Source of the DNA: an uncultured delta proteobacterium
Lineage (GTDB): Bacteria > Desulfobacterota > Binatia > UBA9968
Assembly: GCA_963847445.1 (NCBI GenBank)
Contig: CAWJZV010000006.1
Span: forward strand, 1 to 64,000
Length of the DNA: 64,000 nt
Reading direction: 5' to 3'
The notes beneath the pieces are model-generated. The model saw only the letters and a list, made by a program, of their open reading frames with translations. It ran no database searches and was not told the DNA's origin. A program made the translations under genes and the position numbers. This document shows, in pieces, positions 21,060 through 29,113 of the stretch; the first letter of the stretch is position 1; each line of letters opens with the position of its first letter.

Positions 21060-22190
21060 ATGAAAACTAATTTACTTCCCCTGGTTTTTTTACTCTGCGC
21101 GGTTCCGCCTGCCGCCGGTCAGGCGCCGAGTTCGCCGCAACCGAAGCCGATCGAAGGCGCGTTGCGGGCGACCACCGTCGCCAAAGGGTTGGAACATCCC
21201 TGGGCCCTCGAAATTCTCCCCGACGGGCGCATGCTGGTCAGCGAGCGGCCGGGACGCTTGCGCGTCATCGATCGTAACGGGCGCGTCGCCGAGCCGTTGG
21301 CCGGCGTGCCCACAGTAGTCGCGCGCCGGCAGGGCGGGCTGCTCGATATCGCGCGATCGCCTGGCTTTGCCCAGGACCGGCTGATTTATTTTTCCTTCGC
21401 GGAAGAGGGCGAGGGCGGCACCGGCACGGCGGTGGCGCGCGCTGTTTTGGCCGAGCGAGCGCTGGAAAAAGTCCAGGTGATCTGGCGCCAGACGCCTAAA
21501 GTCAAGAGTGATAATCATTTCGGCTCGCGACTGGTGTTTGGCCGCGACGGCAATCTATTCGTTACCTTGGGCGATCGCTTCGCGTACCGTGATCAGGCGC
21601 AGAATCTGGCGACCACGTTGGGCAAGATAGTCAGAATTCAACCGGATGGCGGCATTCCGAAAGATAATCCGTTTGTCGGGCGCGAAGGCGCGCGGCCGGA
21701 GATCTGGTCCTATGGCCATCGTAACGTGCAAGCGGCGACGCTCCACCCGGAGACCGGACAACTGTGGACGGTCGAGCATGGCGCGCGCGGCGGCGACGAG
21801 CTCAATCAACCGCAAGCCGGAAAAAATTACGGCTGGCCGGTGATTACCTATGGCGTCGATTACTCCGGGGCAAAGATCGGCGAAGGCACGAGCAAGGCGG
21901 GCATGGAGCAACCGGTTTATTATTGGGACCCGGTGATCGCGCCGTCGGGGGCATTGCTTTATACCGGCAACCTCTTCCCGCAATGGAAGGGCAATCTGTT
22001 GATCGGTTCGTTGCAGCCGGGCCAGTTGGTGCGGCTGGAAATGACCGCCGGGCGCGTCAGCAACGAGTATCGTTACGGCGGCGAGCTGGGCGCGCGCATC
22101 CGCGACGTGCAGCAAGCGCCGGACGGAGCGATTTACCTCATCACGGACGAGAACAACGGCAGAATTCTGCGCGTCGAACCGGCGAAGTAA
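21060..22190 (+). CDS. PQQ-dependent sugar dehydrogenase (YliI/Asd family), exported
   Basis: GLEHPW, QGGLLD, HFGSRL, YGHRNVQ, EHGARGGDELN, NYGWP, RIRDV; signal peptide. Confidence 0.95.
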   Translation: MKTNLLPLVFLLCAVPPAAGQAPSSPQPKPIEGALRATTVAKGLEHPWALEILPDGRMLVSERPGRLRVIDRNGRVAEPLAGVPTVVARRQGGLLDIARSPGFAQDRLIYFSFAEEGEGGTGTAVARAVLAERALEKVQVIWRQTPKVKSDNHFGSRLVFGRDGNLFVTLGDRFAYRDQAQNLATTLGKIVRIQPDGGIPKDNPFVGREGARPEIWSYGHRNVQAATLHPETGQLWTVEHGARGGDELNQPQAGKNYGWPVITYGVDYSGAKIGEGTSKAGMEQPVYYWDPVIAPSGALLYTGNLFPQWKGNLLIGSLQPGQLVRLEMTAGRVSNEYRYGGELGARIRDVQQAPDGAIYLITDENNGRILRVEPAK

Positions 22191-22203
22191 CAAAAGAAAA
22201 GCC

Positions 22204-22249
22204 CGTTCAAATCGTTCAAACCGTTCAAGCAGTTCAAGTCGTTGTCGGA
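22204..22249 (+). repeat. GTTCAA 9-nt-period array, copy 1 (left arm only)
   Basis: GTTCAA at 22205, 22214, 22223, 22232, then CGTTGTCGGA. Confidence 0.9.
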
Positions 22250-22336
22250 AGAAGAATCGGAACTGGAGAATGAACCGCGAGCCTGCAACGTAACGCGCCG
22301 AAGCTAATGGTTACGATCGGCGCAATCTCTGAAATC

Positions 22337-22364
22337 CGTCATTCCCGTGAAAACGGGAATCCAG
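22337..22364. repeat. REP-like palindrome (CGTCATTCCCG type)
   Basis: CGTCATTCCCGTGAAAACGGGAATCCAG hairpin. Confidence 0.75.
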
Positions 22365-22492
22365 GTTCGGTTGGGGTGGGGTGACCCGCATGCGGAATTC
22401 ATTTTGCGGCAATTCGCCAAATCGTTTTTGCCAAGTCTACGATCCGCGTCGCCGGCGCACATTTCGCAATCACGCGATTGCCAGCCACCCCA

Positions 22493-22515
22493 GGGCGTAT
22501 GCAATACGCCCCTAC
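22493..22515. repeat. GTAG-family REP palindrome
   Basis: GGGCGTATGCAATACGCCCCTAC; reverse complement begins GTAGGGGCG. Confidence 0.8.
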
Positions 22516-22556
22516 GCAGAAAACCGAACTTTGCGTTGTTATCCGTGATCATTTGC

Positions 22557-23542
22557 ATGGCTATCCGGGGTTTTGCGATCGCTGCTTTCGCGCTGATCAG
22601 TTCGAGCTGCAGCGGACCGCAGTCCGCGCTCGATCCCGCCGGTCATGGCGCCCAGTGGATCGCCGATATGTTCTGGTGGATGACCGGTTCGGCGGCGGTA
22701 ATCTGGGTCGCGGTTATCGTCTCTGGCGATCTGGGCGGCGCGCAGCGCGCCGGAAAAGCAAAACCGGCGGCGCACCAACCTGATGATCATCGGCGGCGGC
22801 GCAGTGGTGCCGACGCTGGCGTTGGCGCTGCTGTTGCTTTACGGGCTGGCGCCGCTACCGGCGTTGCTCGCGCCCGCGCCCCACGGCAGCCTGCTAATCG
22901 AAGTCTCCGGCGAGCAATGGTGGTGGCGCGTGCGTTACCGGCCGCCCGGCGCCGCCGTTGTGAGCGTCGCCAACGAAATCCGTCTTCCGGTCGGCGCGCC
23001 GGTGCAGTTTCATCTAGAAAGTCCCGATGTCGTCCATTCTTTTTGGATACCGCCGTTGGGCGGCAAGATCGACATGATTCCCGGCCGAGTCACGCGCCTG
23101 GTTCTGACGCCCACGCGCAGCGGAACCTTTCGCGGCGCTTGTGCCGAGTACTGCGGCACGTCCCACGCGCTGATGGCGTTTCCAGTCGTGATCATGGAAC
23201 CCGCGGACTTTGCCCGCTGGCTGACGGCGCAGGCGGCGCCCGCGCAGCCGCCCACGACTGCGCTGGCTGCGCGCGGATTGGCGGCGTTTTTGGAAAGCGG
23301 CTGCGGCGCTTGCCACAGCATCCGTGGCACCTCCGCCGCGCGGCGTCATCGGCCCTGATCTTACCCACGTCGGCAGCCGGTTGAGTCTCGGCGCAGGAAT
23401 TTTGCCGAACACGCCGGAGGCGTTCGTGCGCTGGCTTAAGCATGCGGATAAGTTAAAACCCGGAGTGCACATGCCGGGTTTTGGCATGCTGGCTGAATCC
23501 GAGTTGCAGGCAGTGGCGGCGTATCTGGACGGCTTAGAATGA
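22557..23542 (+). CDS. coxB: cytochrome c oxidase subunit II with fused cytochrome c (caa3 type; two frameshifts)
   Basis: SALDPAG, QWWW, DVVHSFW, CAEYCGTSHALM CuA site, CGACH, GPDLTH, PGVHMP. Confidence 0.92.
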
Positions 23543-23728
23543 ACACGTTCAAATCGTTCAAGCCGTTCAAGCGCTGCGCTCCGTTCAAGCCGTTGTCGGA
23601 GGTTGTAATAGTTAAAACATTTTGCCAACTCGTTCTTCGTCCCGTTCTTCCGCGCCTTGAACAGAGCGAAGCGGTTGAACGAAGCGTTGGCGATTGAACG
23701 GAGCAACGCGATTGAACGGCTTGAACGT
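23539..23728. repeat. GTTCAA/TTGAAC inverted-array element, copy 2, between coxB and coxA
   Basis: GTTCAA at 23547, 23556, 23565, 23583; TTGAAC at 23657, 23675, 23694, 23712, 23721. Confidence 0.92.
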
Positions 23729-23737
23729 ATTGCAGTC

Positions 23738-26274
23738 ATGAAGAGACCTGATCCCCAACCGTTAGCCGAACCATTGCCCGTCGAACAGCGGCGGGCGCAA
23801 GCCGAGCGACTGATGCGTACCTGGGAGACGCCTGCCGGGTGGCGCTATTGGTCTTCGGTCAACAATATGGATGTCGGTTTGTGGTACACCGGGCTGACGT
23901 TTATCTTCCTGCTCTTCGGCGGCGGCCTGGCGCTTTTGATGCGTCTGCAACTGGCCGTGCCCGATAACGATTTTCTTTCCGCCGAATTTTACAACCAAGC
24001 ATTCACCGTGCATGGCTCGGTGATGATGTTCTTGTTCGCGATTCCGATCTTTGAAGCGATCGCGGTATTATTTTTGCCGCAAATGCTCGGCGCGCGCGAC
24101 TTGCCGTTTCCGCGTCTTTCGGCATTTGGCTTTTGGTGTTTTCTTCTCGGCGGCTTGTTCCTTTGCGGGTCGATCTTCTTCGATGCGGCGCCGCGCGGCG
24201 GCTGGTTCATGTATCCGCCGCTCACTTCCAAGTATCAGCCCGACATCGGCGCGGATATTTGGCTTTTGGGATTTTCATTCATCGAGATCGCCGCCATCGC
24301 CGCCGCCGTCGAGATGATCGTCGGCACGCTCAAGACCAGACCGCCGGGAATGCGGCTTAATTTAATGCCGCTCTACGTTTGGTATGTGCTGGTGGCCGCG
24401 GTGATGATCGTCTTCGCGTTTCCGCCGTTGATCGCCGGCAGCATGCTGCTCGAGCTTGAACGGGCCTTTGACTGGCCGTTCTTCAATCCCGCAGCGCGGC
24501 GGCGACCCGCTGCTGTGGCAGCATTTGTTCTGGCTCTTCGGCCATCCCGAAGTCTACATCATATTTTTGCCCTCGGTGGCGCTGATCGCGATGATCGTGC
24601 CGACCTTCGCGCAGCGCCCGATAGTCGGCTACAGCTGGATCGTGCTGGCTGCGGTGGGCACCGGGTTTCTGAGTTTCGGCCTGTGGGTGCATCACATGTT
24701 TACCACCGGGCTGCCGGGCATCACTCTCGGAATATTTGCCGCCGCCTCGCAGGCGGTGGCGCTGCCCACCGGCGTGCAGATCTTCTGCTTCATCGCTACC
24801 CTTGCCGCCGGGCGAGTGGTGCCGTCGGTGCCGATGCTCTGGGCCTTCGGCAGCCTGGTGATTTTCGTGCTCGGCGGCTTGACCGGCGTGATGGTGGCGG
24901 TGGCGCCTTTCGATTTTCAGGCCCACGACACGTTTTTCGTCGTCGCGCATTTACATTACGTCTTGATCGGCGGCGCGCTGTTTCCGATCTTTGCCGGTTG
25001 CTATTATTTTTACCCGTTGATCGGCGGCAAGCTGCTCTCAGAAAAAATCGGCAAGGTCGCTTTTTGGCTGGCATTTACCGGCTTCAATATTACGTTTCTG
25101 CCGATGCATGTGACCGGCCTGCGCGGCATGCCGCGGCGGGTTTTTACTTACCCTGCGGGAATGGGTTTCGATGGACTGAATCTGGTCTCTACCATCGGCG
25201 CGTTTATCCTCGCCGCCGGCGTCGCGCTGATCTTCTGGGATCTATTCCGGCCAAAGCGCCATCAGCCCTATGCGGAGCGCAATCCGTGGCGCGCCGGAAC
25301 CATCGAGTGGACTCAGGAAATGCCAGCCCATCCCTGGGGCATTCGCTCGATTCCCGAAATCGACAGCCGATATCCTTTGTGGGACCAGGCGAATTTCATT
25401 CGCGACATCGACGAGGGCAGATTTTATTTGCCGGATGCGCAGGAAGGCCGGCGCGAAACGATCATCACCTCGGTGCTCGATGCCGAGCCGCAACAATGCG
25501 CGCGCCTGCCGGGGTCCAGTTTCATCACGCTGTGGGCGGCGCTTGGCACCGGCGGTTTTTTTATTTTCGGCACTTATCATTGGTGGACCGCGGCGCTGAT
25601 CAGTCTGATGGCCGGGCTGGTGGTGATTATCTTTTGGCTCTGGACCGGCACCGGGCAAATTCCCGAGAAAGAAAGCAAAGACGTCGGTCTCGGATTGACC
25701 TTGCCGCTATATCTCTCCGGGTCGGGACTCGGTGGGCTGGTGGGCGATGTTCATCACCATGCTGGCGCTGTTCACGGCATTCATCTGTCTGGTCTTCGGC
25801 TATTTCTTCTATTGGACGGCGCGCGACGACTTTCCTCCCGACCCGATCCCCGGGCCAGGGACTTTCTGGCCGGTGGTCGCAGCGGCGGCGCTGCTCGGCT
25901 CCTGGGCGTTAACGCTTTTGAGCGTGCGCTGGAATCGCCTCGACAACGTCCCGGCCTTCTATCTCGGCCTCGCTTTCGCCATGCTTTGCAGCGCGGCAGG
26001 CGCTGCGGCGCTGCTCGCGGGTCCGTGGCGCACCGGCCTTGACCCGGCGAGCCATGTCTATGGTGCAACGGTTTGGATCCTGGTGATCTGGGCCGCGGTG
26101 CAGGCGCTGCTCGGCATCATCATGCAGCTTTACTGCCTGGCGCGCCGCCTCGCCGGACGCATGACCTCGCGCTACGACATGGACATTTACAACGTCGCGC
26201 TGTACTGGCACTTCACCGCGCTGACGGCGGCGATTACGGTGGCGGTGATTGCCGGGTTTCCGCTACTTTTATGA
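23738..26274 (+). CDS. coxA: cytochrome c oxidase subunit I with fused subunit III-like C-terminus (two frameshifts)
   Basis: FTVHGSVMMF, GWFMYPPL, FGHPEVY, WVHHMF, VAHLHYV, GMPRR; C-terminal GWW...LYWHF subunit III-like segment in ORF 25732-26274. Confidence 0.93.
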
Positions 26275-26494
26275 ATAAACACGTTCAAATCGTTCAAAAC
26301 GTTCAAGCGCCTCTTAGGAATGAAGATGTTCAAACCGTTCAACCGCTGCGCTCGGTTCAAAACGTTCAAACCGTTTCGGAAAAGATTTGACGGACCGGGA
26401 GGCAAGTAAGGGTGAATCTTAACTCGCTTTTTTTAGTCGGCTTGAACGGAGCAAAGCGTTTGAACGGAACGAAGTGATTGAACGGCTTGAACGC
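26271..26494. repeat. GTTCAA/TTGAAC inverted-array element, copy 3
   Basis: GTTCAA at 26283, 26292, 26301, 26328, 26337, 26355, 26364; TTGAAC at 26442, 26460, 26478, 26487. Confidence 0.92.
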
Positions 26495-26514
26495 GTTCAT
26501 AAGTGAAAGGGAAA

Positions 26515-26899
26515 ATGGCCCGGGAAAATTTTCCAGAGCACAAAGATAGCATTTTGCTGCTTGACCCTGGGTCCGCTGATCTGGGCGGCGCACTTGCTGT
26601 TGAGCTATGGCACGGCGTCGATCTGGTGCGGCAAGATGGTTGAGACCGGCGGTTCTCTCGGCACCGTTCGCGGCGCGATTGTGGTTTACACTGTGGCCGG
26701 ACTTGCGGCGACTACCTGGGTCGCCTGGAGGGGCTATCGCCGACATCGCACCGGCGGGGCCAGTTTGCCGCATGACGACGATTCACCTGAAGACCGCCAT
26801 CGTTTTATCGGTTATGCAACTTTTTTGCTGGCTTGTTTGAGCGCCGCTGCGATCGTTTACGCCGGCTCGATCACGCTGTTTTTTCGGAGTTGCTATTAA
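26515..26899 (+). CDS. small membrane protein of the oxidase operon (probable frameshift near 26565)
   Basis: PLIWAAHLLLSY...C and three TM segments; operon position; ATG 26515 is in a different frame from ORF 26561. Confidence 0.7.
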
Positions 26900-26901
26900 C
26901 A

Positions 26902-27344
26902 ATGAAGACAGAGCCGTTCAAAACGTTCAACCGCTACGCTCCGTTCAAGCCGTGCCCTCACCCGAACCCTTCCAAAGGGAGCTTATCGTTGCCCATAGGT
27001 TTTGGTTGGAGACGGCGAGTGCTGCAGACTCAGCAAATTCTGGTAAAGCGCTCAAGCGGCGGCGCGTTTTCCAGTCCCCCTCTTTGGAAAAGAGGGGCTA
27101 GGGGAGATTTTTCGCTTCCATGCGGCTCCATCGTCGTAAGCGTCATTGCTAACGATAGAACCTCCCCTCACCGCAGCCAAATCCCCCTGAATCCCCCTTT
27201 TCCAAAGGGGGAAGGGGTCACTATGAGGCCTCTGCTTCTGTCCAGCCAATGAGATGTGGCGCGTGTTGAGCAAAGAGAGCGGGAACTAGGAACGAAGCGA
27301 AGCGGTTGAACTGAGCGCAGCGCGGTTGAACGAAACGAAGTGAA
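26902..27344. repeat. GTTCAA/TTGAAC inverted-array element, copy 4, with nested REPs
   Basis: GTTCAA at 26916, 26925, 26943; TTGAAC at 27306, 27326; interior holds CCCTCACCC-type and CCCCCTTT-type palindromes. Confidence 0.85.
27075..27212. repeat. inverted pair of CCCCCTTT..AAAGGGGG REP-like units
   Basis: TCCCCCTCTTTGGAAAAGAGGGGCTAGGGGAGATTT (27075-27110) versus AAATCCCCCTGAATCCCCCTTTTCCAAAGGGGGA (27179-27212). Confidence 0.85.
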
Positions 27345-27996
27345 ATGACCCGGCCAATTATTTTCATCATCGCCGTGCTCACGCTTGCGGCTCTGTGGTT
27401 GACGCCTTGGGCTTCATTGGGCATGGCGCCGTTTAGCGCGCATATGGTCGTGCATATGGGGATCGTCGCGGTGGCGGCGCCGCTGTTGGCGCTTGGGGTT
27501 GCCGGCAGCGCTGCTCGATCCAGTAGCGCGCTTGCCGGCGCTGTTTCCGCCGATTCCGGTGTCGCTGGTGGAATTTATCGTCGTGTGGGCTTGGCACACG
27601 CCGGCGCTGCATCACGCCGCGCGCCAACCAGGTTTCGCGTCGTTTGCCGAGCAGGGCATGTTTTTTCTCGCCGGGCTCTGGCTCTGGCTGGCGGTTTTCG
27701 GCGGCACTGGCAACGAGCGCCGCGGCCGGGCTGGCAGCGGCGTGCTTGCGCTCCTGCTGACTTCCATGCACATGACCCTGCTTGGCGCGCTCTTGGCTCT
27801 GGCGCCGCGGCCGCTATTCGCCCATGACACGGCTGATGCGACCCATGCTCTAGATTCCCTAGCTGCGCTCGCCGATCAGCAGCTAGGCGGCGCGATCATG
27901 CTGCTGGTCGGTGGCGTTGCCTATCTCGCCGGCGGTCTGTGGCTGACTGCTGGATTATTGCGCAGGGTGGAGTATCGGCAGAGGGCAAGGACATGA
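27345..27996 (+). CDS. cytochrome c oxidase assembly protein (Caa3_CtaG family; one frameshift)
   Basis: FSAHMVVHM..VAVAAPLL, WAWHTPALH, HMTLLG, DQQLGGAIM. Confidence 0.88.
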
Positions 27997-29113
27997 AAAC
28001 CTGGCTGTGGCGTGGCGCGCTCGCGCTTGCGCTGCTCGGCATGTTGGGAGGTCTCGTCATGCTCTCCGGGATCGTGCCGATCAAAGCCAGCTCGCGCCAC
28101 TGGGCGATTACCGCCTGGCTGCTGGATTTTTCCAAACAGCGCTCGGTCAGCACGCATACTCTTGGCCTGAAAGCGCCGCCGCTTGACGATCCGCGCATGG
28201 TGGTCAAGGGCGGTGCTTACTTTGATGTCGGCTGCCGTCCTTGCCACGGCGGGCCGGAGCTGCGCCAGCCAAGAATCCCGGCGCAAATGACGCCCCATCC
28301 GGTCTATCTGCCGCCGCGTATCGCCGATTGGGCAGCCGAGGAGCTTTTTTACATGATCAAACACGGCATCAAGTTCACCGGCATGCCCGCCTGGCCCGCG
28401 CCCGGTCGCGACGATGAGGTCTGGGCGATAGTCGCTTTTCTCAAGCGCCTGCCGCATCTTGACGCCGCACAGTACGCGCGCGTGACCCGGGGTGAAACCG
28501 CGGACGACCGCATGGACGCGCCGCTGCGCGCGCTGGCAGCCCAAGTCGGTTGCGGCGCGCCGCGCGGTGGCGGATAACTGTTCGCGCTGTCACGGCGCCG
28601 ACGGCATGGGCAGGGACGGCGCATCGCCGGTTATCGCCGGTCAACGGGCAGCGTACATTTTCGCGTCTCTTGACGCCTATGGCCGCGGCAAGCGCCACAG
28701 CGGCATGATGGAACCGATCGCCGCCGGCTTGAGCGTCGCAAACGATGAGCGAACTTGCGCATTTTTACGCCGGGCTTGCGCCCGCTTCGCGGTCCGCCAG
28801 TGCCGACAGCGCCGCCATCGCGCGCGGGCGTGCAATCGCCCTGGGCGGCGTGGCGCAAAACAAAGTCCCCCCTTGCGCGGAGTGTCATGGTCCGGGCGAG
28901 CGCCGCCGCAATCCATTCTATCCCGATCTTGCCGGACAGCATGGCGATTATTTGGTACTTCAATTGCAACTCTTCAAAGCCGGCATACGTGGCGGCAGCG
29001 CCTACGCGCACCTGATGCAACATGTCGCGCCGCACTTGAGCGAAGCGCAAATCCGCGACTTGGCGGCGTATTATAGTGTTGCGGAAAGCAAAAAAGTAGG
29101 AATCGAGAACTAG
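27993..29113 (+). CDS. membrane-anchored multiheme c-type cytochrome (c4/c553-like; two frameshifts)
   Basis: three heme motifs CRPCH, CSRCH, CAECH; HGIKFTGMPAW; P.LAGQ...Y; ATGA overlap with upstream gene. Confidence 0.88.

Follow-up and report, generated by a model that had tools for sequence, protein, structure and literature searches.

The cox operon of an uncultured delta proteobacterium of the Candidatus Binatia, a soil bacterium, was found to carry hairpin-forming repeat elements at its gene junctions, and at three of these an ATG that overlaps or closely follows the stop codon of the upstream gene opens a mini open reading frame (mini-ORF) into the element. These mini-ORFs are rather likely to be by-products of a relic start codon and a stop-free repeat, and neither genes encoded by the element nor the mark of its insertion mechanism, because an ATG stranded at such a site meets a repeat without a stop in any forward frame. 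The sequence analysed, called the window below, is the 64,000-nucleotide (nt) stretch C6:1-64000 (contig CAWJZV010000006.1) of a metagenome-assembled genome (MAG; GCA_963847445.1, genome code G000) of 7.19 Mb in 48 contigs, and all window positions are on its forward strand. Genes in 21060-28577 code for a glucose/sorbosone dehydrogenase, CoxB (COX2 plus cytochrome c), CoxA (COX1, long form), a small membrane protein for which a Pfam search found no family, and a Caa3_CtaG assembly factor, with gene names taken from the intact orthologues in genome G019. Arrays of the 9-nt unit GTTCAAnnC occupy three operon junctions and the junction upstream of coxB, and three of them have an inverted TTGAAC array as partner, left and right arms being inverted repeats; GTTCAANNNGTTCAA occurs 13 times in the window compared to none in 100 shuffles. 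A preliminary description of the window had listed three mini-ORFs of 52, 39 and 116 amino acids (aa), and their coordinates and translations proved correct, as did the ATG/stop overlaps at 23539 and 26271 and the position of ATG 26902, 2 nt past a stop.

At the coxB/coxA junction (junction 1) the coxB fragment ends at 23542, and ATGA (23539-23542) combines its stop (TGA, 23540-23542) with an overlapping ATG. The five bases ATGAA recur at 23738, where ATGA (23738-23741) is the present coxA start, 11 nt past the right arm and without a Shine-Dalgarno-like motif upstream; both copies had been noted before and are present. Between them lie a left arm (23547-23594; GTTCAA units at 23547, 23556, 23565 and 23583, with a CGCTGCGCTCC variant unit between) and a right arm (23657-23726; TTGAAC units at 23657, 23675, 23694, 23712 and 23721), and on folding the stretch 23520-23760 formed one long hairpin (-89.7 kcal/mol, z = -4.4). 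Mini-ORF 1 (23539-23697; 52 aa, F-K frame, MNTFKSFKPFKRCAPFKP...; no Pfam family) passes through the left arm and the loop and ends at a TGA within a TTGAAC unit of the right arm, 40 nt upstream of the coxA ATG. In our reading ATG 23539, joined to the coxB stop, is what is left of the ancestral coxA start, and ATG 23738 is the working start in its displaced position, because an overlap of coxB and coxA by NTGA appears ancestral, both from G019 and across many phyla. The 4-5 nt present twice at this junction are what the splitting of an overlap requires.

The orthologous operon was compared in six other genomes of the genus (coxA N-terminal identity 85-96%). The same junctions hold insertions in five of the six, though the family can differ (other elements were found in G002 at junction 1 and in G003 and G013 at junction 2), and G019 has no arms anywhere in the cox operon. 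In G019 coxB and coxA overlap by ATGA, the small gene and ctaG overlap by TGATG, and coxA is followed by TAA and a 41-nt spacer. The preliminary description had proposed empty sites as a check, and at coxB/coxA this check came out in its favour: element-free G019 has ATGA at the insertion point. A survey of 80 loci from many phyla with the same coxA type gave 74 determinable coxB-coxA junctions (6 were undeterminable), with a 4-nt NTGA overlap at 67 (48 ATGA, 15 GTGA, 4 TTGA), and for this reason the stop/start overlap is taken to be ancestral. Two of the seven exceptions are Binatia contigs with insertions. Two further Binatia contigs have GTG as the relic at the coxB stop (AAG TGA) and ATGAA as the working start, and ATGA or GTGA at the coxB stop together with a second ATGA at coxA is kept in all Binatia copies with an insertion. 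The context of the old overlap is preserved, so ribosomes ending coxB probably still restart at ATG 23539 as they would have ancestrally, and mini-ORF 1 is likely to be translated to some degree. In two soil RNA runs (contigs only) 6-8% of sampled words were present, on short contigs of which none spanned a junction; the arms drew contigs of other copies, with loose ends at 23546/7 and 23588.

The junction between the small gene and ctaG (junction 3) gave a similar picture. The stop of the small-protein ORF (TAA, 26897-26899) is followed 2 nt later by ATG 26902, and ATGA stands both there and at 27345, again as previously noted. Mini-ORF 3 (26902-27252; 116 aa, F-K frame, MKTEPFKTFNRYAPFKP...; no Pfam family) runs through a left arm (26916-26948; GTTCAA at 26916, 26925 and 26943, and a variant unit) into a loop in which a second, unrelated hairpin with 33-nt arms (CCCTCTTTGGAAAAGAGGGG...) is nested (27078-27211). 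The right arm (27290-27331; TTGAAC at 27306 and 27326) is followed 13 nt later by the present ctaG start (ATGA, 27345-27348), without a Shine-Dalgarno-like motif. In all six genomes an ATG overlaps the stop at this junction by 1 nt or lies up to 2 nt past it, and the five filled genomes retain it even with the true ctaG start 110-445 nt off. Because every genome has a stop-proximal ATG despite the distant start, ATG 26902 is probably the stranded ancestral, stop-overlapping ctaG start.

Junction 2, between coxA and the small gene, is of another kind. The C-terminal ORF of coxA ends at 26274 with ATG 26271 overlapping its TGA, and mini-ORF 2 (26271-26390; 39 aa, V-Q frame, MNKHVQIVQNVQ...; no Pfam family) ends in the loop, 124 nt upstream of the next gene's ATG (26515). 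Its left arms (26283-26375) comprise three units at 26283-26306 and four units plus a variant unit at 26328-26375, and its right arm (26442-26492) has TTGAAC at 26442, 26460, 26478 and 26487 followed by GCGTTCA, an inverted copy of the TGAAC-like unit at the left edge. No duplication is present, the downstream start being ATGG. We regard ATG 26271 as fortuitous, because the last codon TTA precedes the TGA, the start downstream is ATGG, and G019 has GCA TAA and a 41-nt spacer.

These observations can be joined into one course of events. The operon would originally have had overlapping stops and starts, ATGA at coxB/coxA and TGATG at small gene/ctaG, and elements would have settled in its junctions, typically 2-28 nt past the upstream stop. 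The old start would stay joined to that stop while a second ATG(A) beyond the element serves the displaced gene, and the stranded ATG would open a frame through the stop-free left arm that ends in the loop or at a right-arm TGA. Openness of this frame had been counted as a feature of the mini-ORFs. The left arms are indeed stop-free, which carries no evidential weight since it follows from the GTTCAAnnC unit itself in all forward frames: stops occurred in the three forward frames of 8, 22 and 15 of 181 arms genome-wide, compared to approximately 31% of random 42-nt stretches, and one reverse frame always contains TGA (181/181 arms). With arms almost stop-free in all forward frames, any nearby ATG opens an ORF through a left arm.

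Defined as at least three in-phase units, 181 arms were found in 139 loci of the genome (101 lone arms, 30 left-to-right pairs, 4 right-to-left pairs and 4 complex loci), an arm consisting of about four 9-nt GTTCAAnnC units. The three-unit pattern was present in all 24 other genomes of the genus searched (including the unpublished G005) and, of 16 other genomes of the order, 2 had a single match each. Outer-flank coding frames were called with a local six-frame codon-bias model trained on G000. Among 136 loci classed by context, the neighbouring genes are co-directional at 91, convergent at 18 and divergent at 8. Nearly all arms in G000 lie outside genes, and the repeat was found in either orientation and in non-coding contexts. 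A confident co-directional gene reads toward 84 arms, and in 74 of these the arm starts 2-28 nt (median 10) past the stop.

A coupled ATG had been proposed as a trait of the element family, and the genome-wide comparison, in which an ATG counted as coupled when it lay between 2 nt before and 7 nt after the stop's first base, went against this. Among 76 arms after a co-directional stop (at a looser threshold) no enrichment was observed: 10 had a coupled ATG (13%) compared to 131 of 918 convergent gene ends (14.3%; Fisher p = 1.0), where an ATG cannot be a downstream start, and 1328 of 6079 of all ends (21.8%). A control of gaps of at least 100 nt (18.3% with ATG) was set aside as contaminated by uncalled downstream genes. 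The outer flanks of the 181 arms have no conserved position and no conserved ATG(A), and with 66 of the 76 arms lacking an ATG at the stop, insertion at start codons as a family rule is refuted. Two further left ATGA motifs were tried as relics and rejected. The gene at C4 really ends at a TAA located 8 nt upstream of the called stop, and relatives lack the ATG. The C13 element is present, whole or as a stump, in all five genomes searched, its left side showing A/GTGA and its right side ATGC/ATGT. At C24 and C28 synteny was not kept in the five genomes searched, and the tctA-tctC junctions were too diverged (flank identity 70-96%) to fix insertion points.

Several observations were made on arm edges in this set. 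Stops before arms were TAA in 39 of 76 cases, compared to 1930 of 6079 of all ends (p = 0.0005) and 311 of 918 convergent ends (p = 0.004). The commonest stop-to-arm spacing was 4 nt (10 arms), and many edges have the sequence T(A/G)A(A/G)C(A/G)C GTTCAA, which would place the stop inside a degenerate extra unit; ATGAAC(A/G)CGTTCAA was found at four arm edges. Of the lone arms between co-directional genes, 43 have GTTCAA and 23 have TTGAAC as the sense-strand sequence (binomial p = 0.019). At 7 of the 84 arms (C28:81245, C46:474146, C46:323715, C48:206899, C42:124512, C46 minus strand 215259, C46:302741) the upstream frame is still open where the arm begins and continues for 59-174 nt past that point; here the arm may supply C-terminal residues, or the frame call may be wrong.

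A second junction with known empty sites, leuC/leuD, bears on whether insertion duplicates its target. In 16 genomes the empty site reads stop, 10 nt (GCGAGGnnnC) and ATG, and elsewhere the site is filled by a GTTCAA element in five further genomes, a CGCAAAGGCGC-unit element in three and a short hairpin in one. Compared with the 16 empty sites no bases are repeated: the insertions lie between the stop and the ribosome-binding site and keep the full ancestral 10-nt spacer on the right. The ATGAG...ATGAG pair at leuC/leuD in G000 appears to be a coincidence of GAA + TGA and ATG AGC. The site is empty in G003 (L128), with flanks 89-94% identical to those of the filled G000 and G004, and the stop, last codon and spacer differ beside the insertion. 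The leuC/leuD sites suggest that, rather than transposing cleanly, the element may come in when a larger segment recombines. Across 30 paired elements the longest word shared between flanks averaged 4.2 nt (maximum 6) compared to 3.8 nt in shuffled pairings, a value reached by a fraction of 0.016 of 500 shuffles, and a 4-5-mer common to two 20-nt flanks is the chance expectation. No flank-shared word of at least 7 nt was found in the 30 pairs, so there is no general target-site duplication, a duplication of 2-5 nt being still possible. The duplicated ATGA of the preliminary description thus stands at coxB/coxA, and plausibly at 26902/27345, as a split overlap; it has no counterpart at leuC/leuD and does not generalise to the 30 pairs. 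The family was also considered as small transposable elements of the miniature inverted-repeat kind (MITEs), whose mark is a target-site duplication of fixed length at every copy, and neither the 30 pairs nor leuC/leuD showed this mark.

Several results weigh against the reading of the mini-ORFs as by-products, and most of them bear on a different possibility, in which selection maintains the relic or coupled ATG together with the stop-free arm as a bridge: ribosomes would resume at the ATG, open the hairpin by translating into it and be released near a displaced start that has no Shine-Dalgarno motif, so that coupling is kept and polarity avoided. They hint at selection for open frames, which by-products alone would not predict. 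The coxA start has no Shine-Dalgarno-like motif in 9 of 9 Binatia copies and the ctaG start none in 4 of 5 copies checked (G002 has GGGA), and the two genes must therefore rely on something besides a ribosome-binding site. Out of 16 junction-by-genome cases, 13 have the longest of their three frames opened by the stop-proximal ATG, a count drawn from 7 related genomes in which the +1 frame is closed by construction wherever the ATG overlaps a TGA stop (12/16), and the frame of this ATG covers a median of about 0.77 of the insertion. Several mini-ORFs end near the displaced start. The distance left to coxA is 40 nt in G000 and 14 nt in G022, that to ctaG is 11 nt in G013, and in G002 the next start is overlapped by a stop-proximal ORF of 179 codons that spans an entire 526-nt junction. 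Another G002 ORF runs in frame into ctaG. The stop-proximal ATG is retained at junction 3 in all five filled genomes while the surrounding bases differ, and the mini-ORF frame shifts among orthologues while the ATG stays (at junction 3 F-K in G000 and V-Q in G003 and G004; at junction 2 V-Q in G000 and F-K in G004 and G002), as expected if translation matters and not the peptide. Other points that count against by-products concern the genome-wide data: ATGA was found among TGA stops beside arms in 8 of 19 cases compared to 69 of 323 convergent ends (p = 0.047, uncorrected), one of the ten coupled cases (C4) has its real stop upstream of the called one, the gene ends come from our own codon-bias frame caller and not a validated gene finder, and the 4-5-nt duplication has no visible counterpart at leuC/leuD. 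We nevertheless hold selection for such a bridge to be unlikely. Coupled ATGs are not enriched genome-wide, most element-bearing junctions have a normal ribosome-binding site after the right arm, other mini-ORFs stop 74-157 nt before the next start, the coxB relic is GTG in two Binatia copies, the coxB stop by itself fixes two of the three relic bases at junction 1, the frame is not constant among orthologues (assembly indels may have altered it in the window), and the 16 cases come from 7 related genomes. The broader proposal that hairpin cassettes are tolerated in overlap-dependent operons lacking ribosome-binding sites through such bridging, a stranded start and a stop-free arm of 9-nt (3n) units carrying ribosomes to the displaced start, is likewise doubtful; selection would then keep the ATG and the open frame and not the peptide, and its traces would be the 179-codon frame and the ctaG fusion of G002 and the junction 3 ATG of every genome.

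That the family targets start codons (ATGA) and duplicates a short target on insertion, in a MITE-like manner, would account for ATGA(A) on both sides at two window junctions, for the ATGA overlap at the empty coxB/coxA site and for a flank-shared word slightly above the shuffled value. We consider this very improbable, given outer flanks without conserved bases, the 66 of 76 arms without an ATG at the stop, stops that are TAA or TAG in 57 of 76 cases, leuC/leuD insertions of the GTTCAA and CGCAAAGGCGC families and of a short hairpin without duplication, and 30 pairs without a long shared word. ATGA on both sides in 3 of 9 co-directional cases is about the level arising from the common A after ATG (a base rate that was estimated, not computed), and no transposase is linked to the arms, none of four Y1 matches being flanked by them. 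It is hardly credible that the mini-ORFs are real small repeat proteins (FKPF or VQxVQ peptides). They are open frames of 39-116 codons, each with an ATG, but openness is uninformative because arms are stop-free in all three frames; the frame and with it the peptide differ between orthologues (G000 compared to G003, G004 or G002 at junctions 2 and 3), the three had no Pfam match, and the peptide is set by a DNA repeat that occurs in either orientation and also in non-coding DNA. A relic start running into a stop-free repeat remains the reading we prefer.

The window arrays themselves are best read, from sequence comparison, as gene-less members of a genus-wide Candidatus Binatia hairpin family whose full-length copies hold a small gene of PF05635 ('23S rRNA intervening-sequence protein', Avd-like) between their arms. 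Eleven PF05635 matches were found in G000, 10 of them above the family cut-off, and 8 of the 11 are bracketed by inverted repeats of at least 20 nt, with a unit sequence own to each. GTTCAA/TTGAAC arms surround two of the matches (C30:274553-274867, 114.3 bits; C30:251591-251869, 79.9 bits), and in both copies the left arm is followed by a strong ribosome-binding site and then by the PF05635 start. The inner ends of 21 of 180 arms have a GGAGG no more than 22 nt away, compared to 1 of 180 outer ends, which fits a remnant of the ribosome-binding site of the cassette gene. The nine other matches (C11:71004, C11:91824, C27:131380, C15:91834, C46:369664, C2:15804, C2:147325, C27:91191, C9:83390) lie between periodic inverted arms with differing units, e.g., CTCGTG, GAGATA, TGAGATC, AATTCCA, AAAGGT, CGAGTGA and TTCGGAT. 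The transposase search was limited to Y1 transposases (PF01797), of which G000 has four matches, none with GTTCAA arms or matching inverted repeats around it. Membership among the repetitive extragenic palindromes (REPs) and REP doublets forming hairpins (REPINs) was therefore rejected, no gene for a REP-associated tyrosine transposase (RAYT, a Y1 transposase) being flanked by arms. The sole gene found between such arms is PF05635, which to our knowledge is not a known transposase.

Other features of the elements were recorded alongside. A lone left-type arm of four GTTCAAnnC units (22205-22243) lies 14 nt past the TAA of the glucose/sorbosone dehydrogenase gene (21060-22190), with no ATG at that stop. 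Rfam over 21900-27600 at E <= 1 returned nothing but two eukaryotic families, both matched by chance. An inner GC-rich hairpin (CCTCCCCCGCG ... CGCGGGGGAGG) is found in many loops (L011:16354-18891; L012; window 27078-27211), and a further nested element (…TGTCATTTCGA…GAGAAATCTC…GGGATGACAG) is recurrent in G002 and G014 loops. When the G000 region at C4:64431 (L118) was compared with G003, G014, G022 and G002, the flanks were 82-96% identical and the adjacent loop alike, with all four arm units GTTCCA instead of GTTCAA; the same unit switch was seen between L011:18764-18891 and L019. At these loci it seems that an arm either changes all its units together or is exchanged as a whole. In G002 (L006 4026-4152) an ORF of 256 codons starts from the TGATG overlap and passes through a GTTCAA-type arm in frame into ctaG, and this arm may be translated as an N-terminal extension of the ctaG product.

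In the window, 1-nt frame shifts interrupt each of coxB, coxA and the small gene (at about 22722, 23330-23360, 24490, 25730 and 26560). Related contigs differ by single bases at 22722/3, 24492 and 25717, having one base fewer there, and the breaks are for that reason probably assembly errors rather than signs of pseudogenes. Reading frames in the window, those of the mini-ORFs included, may be affected by such assembly indels.

If the mini-ORFs are what we take them to be, a compact translationally coupled operon can absorb large hairpin insertions without gene loss, and 'coupled mini-ORFs' at repeat edges can be fossils of old junctions, which calls for caution in annotating small ORFs in repeat-rich MAGs. 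The arms link a new Binatia repeat family with the little-understood PF05635 cassettes. A bridging ORF, if true, would be a new way to preserve translational coupling across an inserted structure.

A literature search on GTTCAA-type intergenic palindromic repeats found no publication that was relevant by its title or abstract, and one on PF05635 and 23S rRNA intervening sequences found, in the material consulted, no description of such cassettes between genes. The closest published description found, in the passages available, is that of the dispersed tandem-unit repeats of Xanthomonas (GGGAATC) and Nostoc (GGGGA(C/T)T), which occur in runs of at least 4 units, are 89-93% intergenic, are placed mostly between genes of the same direction at an average of 28 nt from the upstream ORF, the downstream ORF being much farther off, and form 70-75 convergent, stem-loop-capable pairs per Xanthomonas genome (Rehm et al., 2015; PMC4692102). 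Like these heptamers, the Binatia arms lie near the upstream ORF and are sometimes convergently paired. The passages of PMC4692102 link the Xanthomonas and Nostoc repeats neither to a PF05635 gene nor to stranded start codons. The Binatia unit differs from them in its 9 nt and GTTCAA core, is not G-rich and has no quadruplex potential.

A likeness to the cassettes is found in 23S rRNA intervening sequences with a PF05635 ORF (S23p or Avd-like four-helix bundle), which also hold a small PF05635 gene within a long stem. Such rRNA intervening sequences are excised by RNase III. The Binatia copies differ in lying between protein-coding genes and not in rRNA, and the window copies in being gene-less. 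PF05635 is described, in the part of the source consulted, as resembling the accessory protein Avd of diversity-generating retroelements (DGRs), with some members encoded in 23S rRNA intervening sequences (PMC10053308). REPs, bacterial interspersed mosaic elements (BIMEs) and REPINs of enterobacteria and pseudomonads likewise number hundreds of short intergenic palindromes near stops, mostly between co-directional or convergent genes, whereas the Binatia arms are strings of tandem units without RAYT association. Work by Liang, Rudd and Deutscher in 2015 is said to have found that the translation of an upstream gene can be influenced when a REP lies no more than about 15 nt from the stop. Rickettsia palindromic elements provide a case of a palindromic repeat tolerated inside translated sequence; the G002 arm read in frame into ctaG resembles them, and the G000 arms differ in lying almost all outside genes. 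Finally, overlaps of stop and start such as ATGA and TGATG give translational coupling by termination-reinitiation. The cox operon differs from ordinary coupling in that its overlap is pulled apart by 110-445 nt of hairpin, with reinitiation after a mini-ORF a conjecture, and resembles it in that the ancestral cox junctions would be of the same kind and the mini-ORFs would act like an upstream ORF passing ribosomes on.

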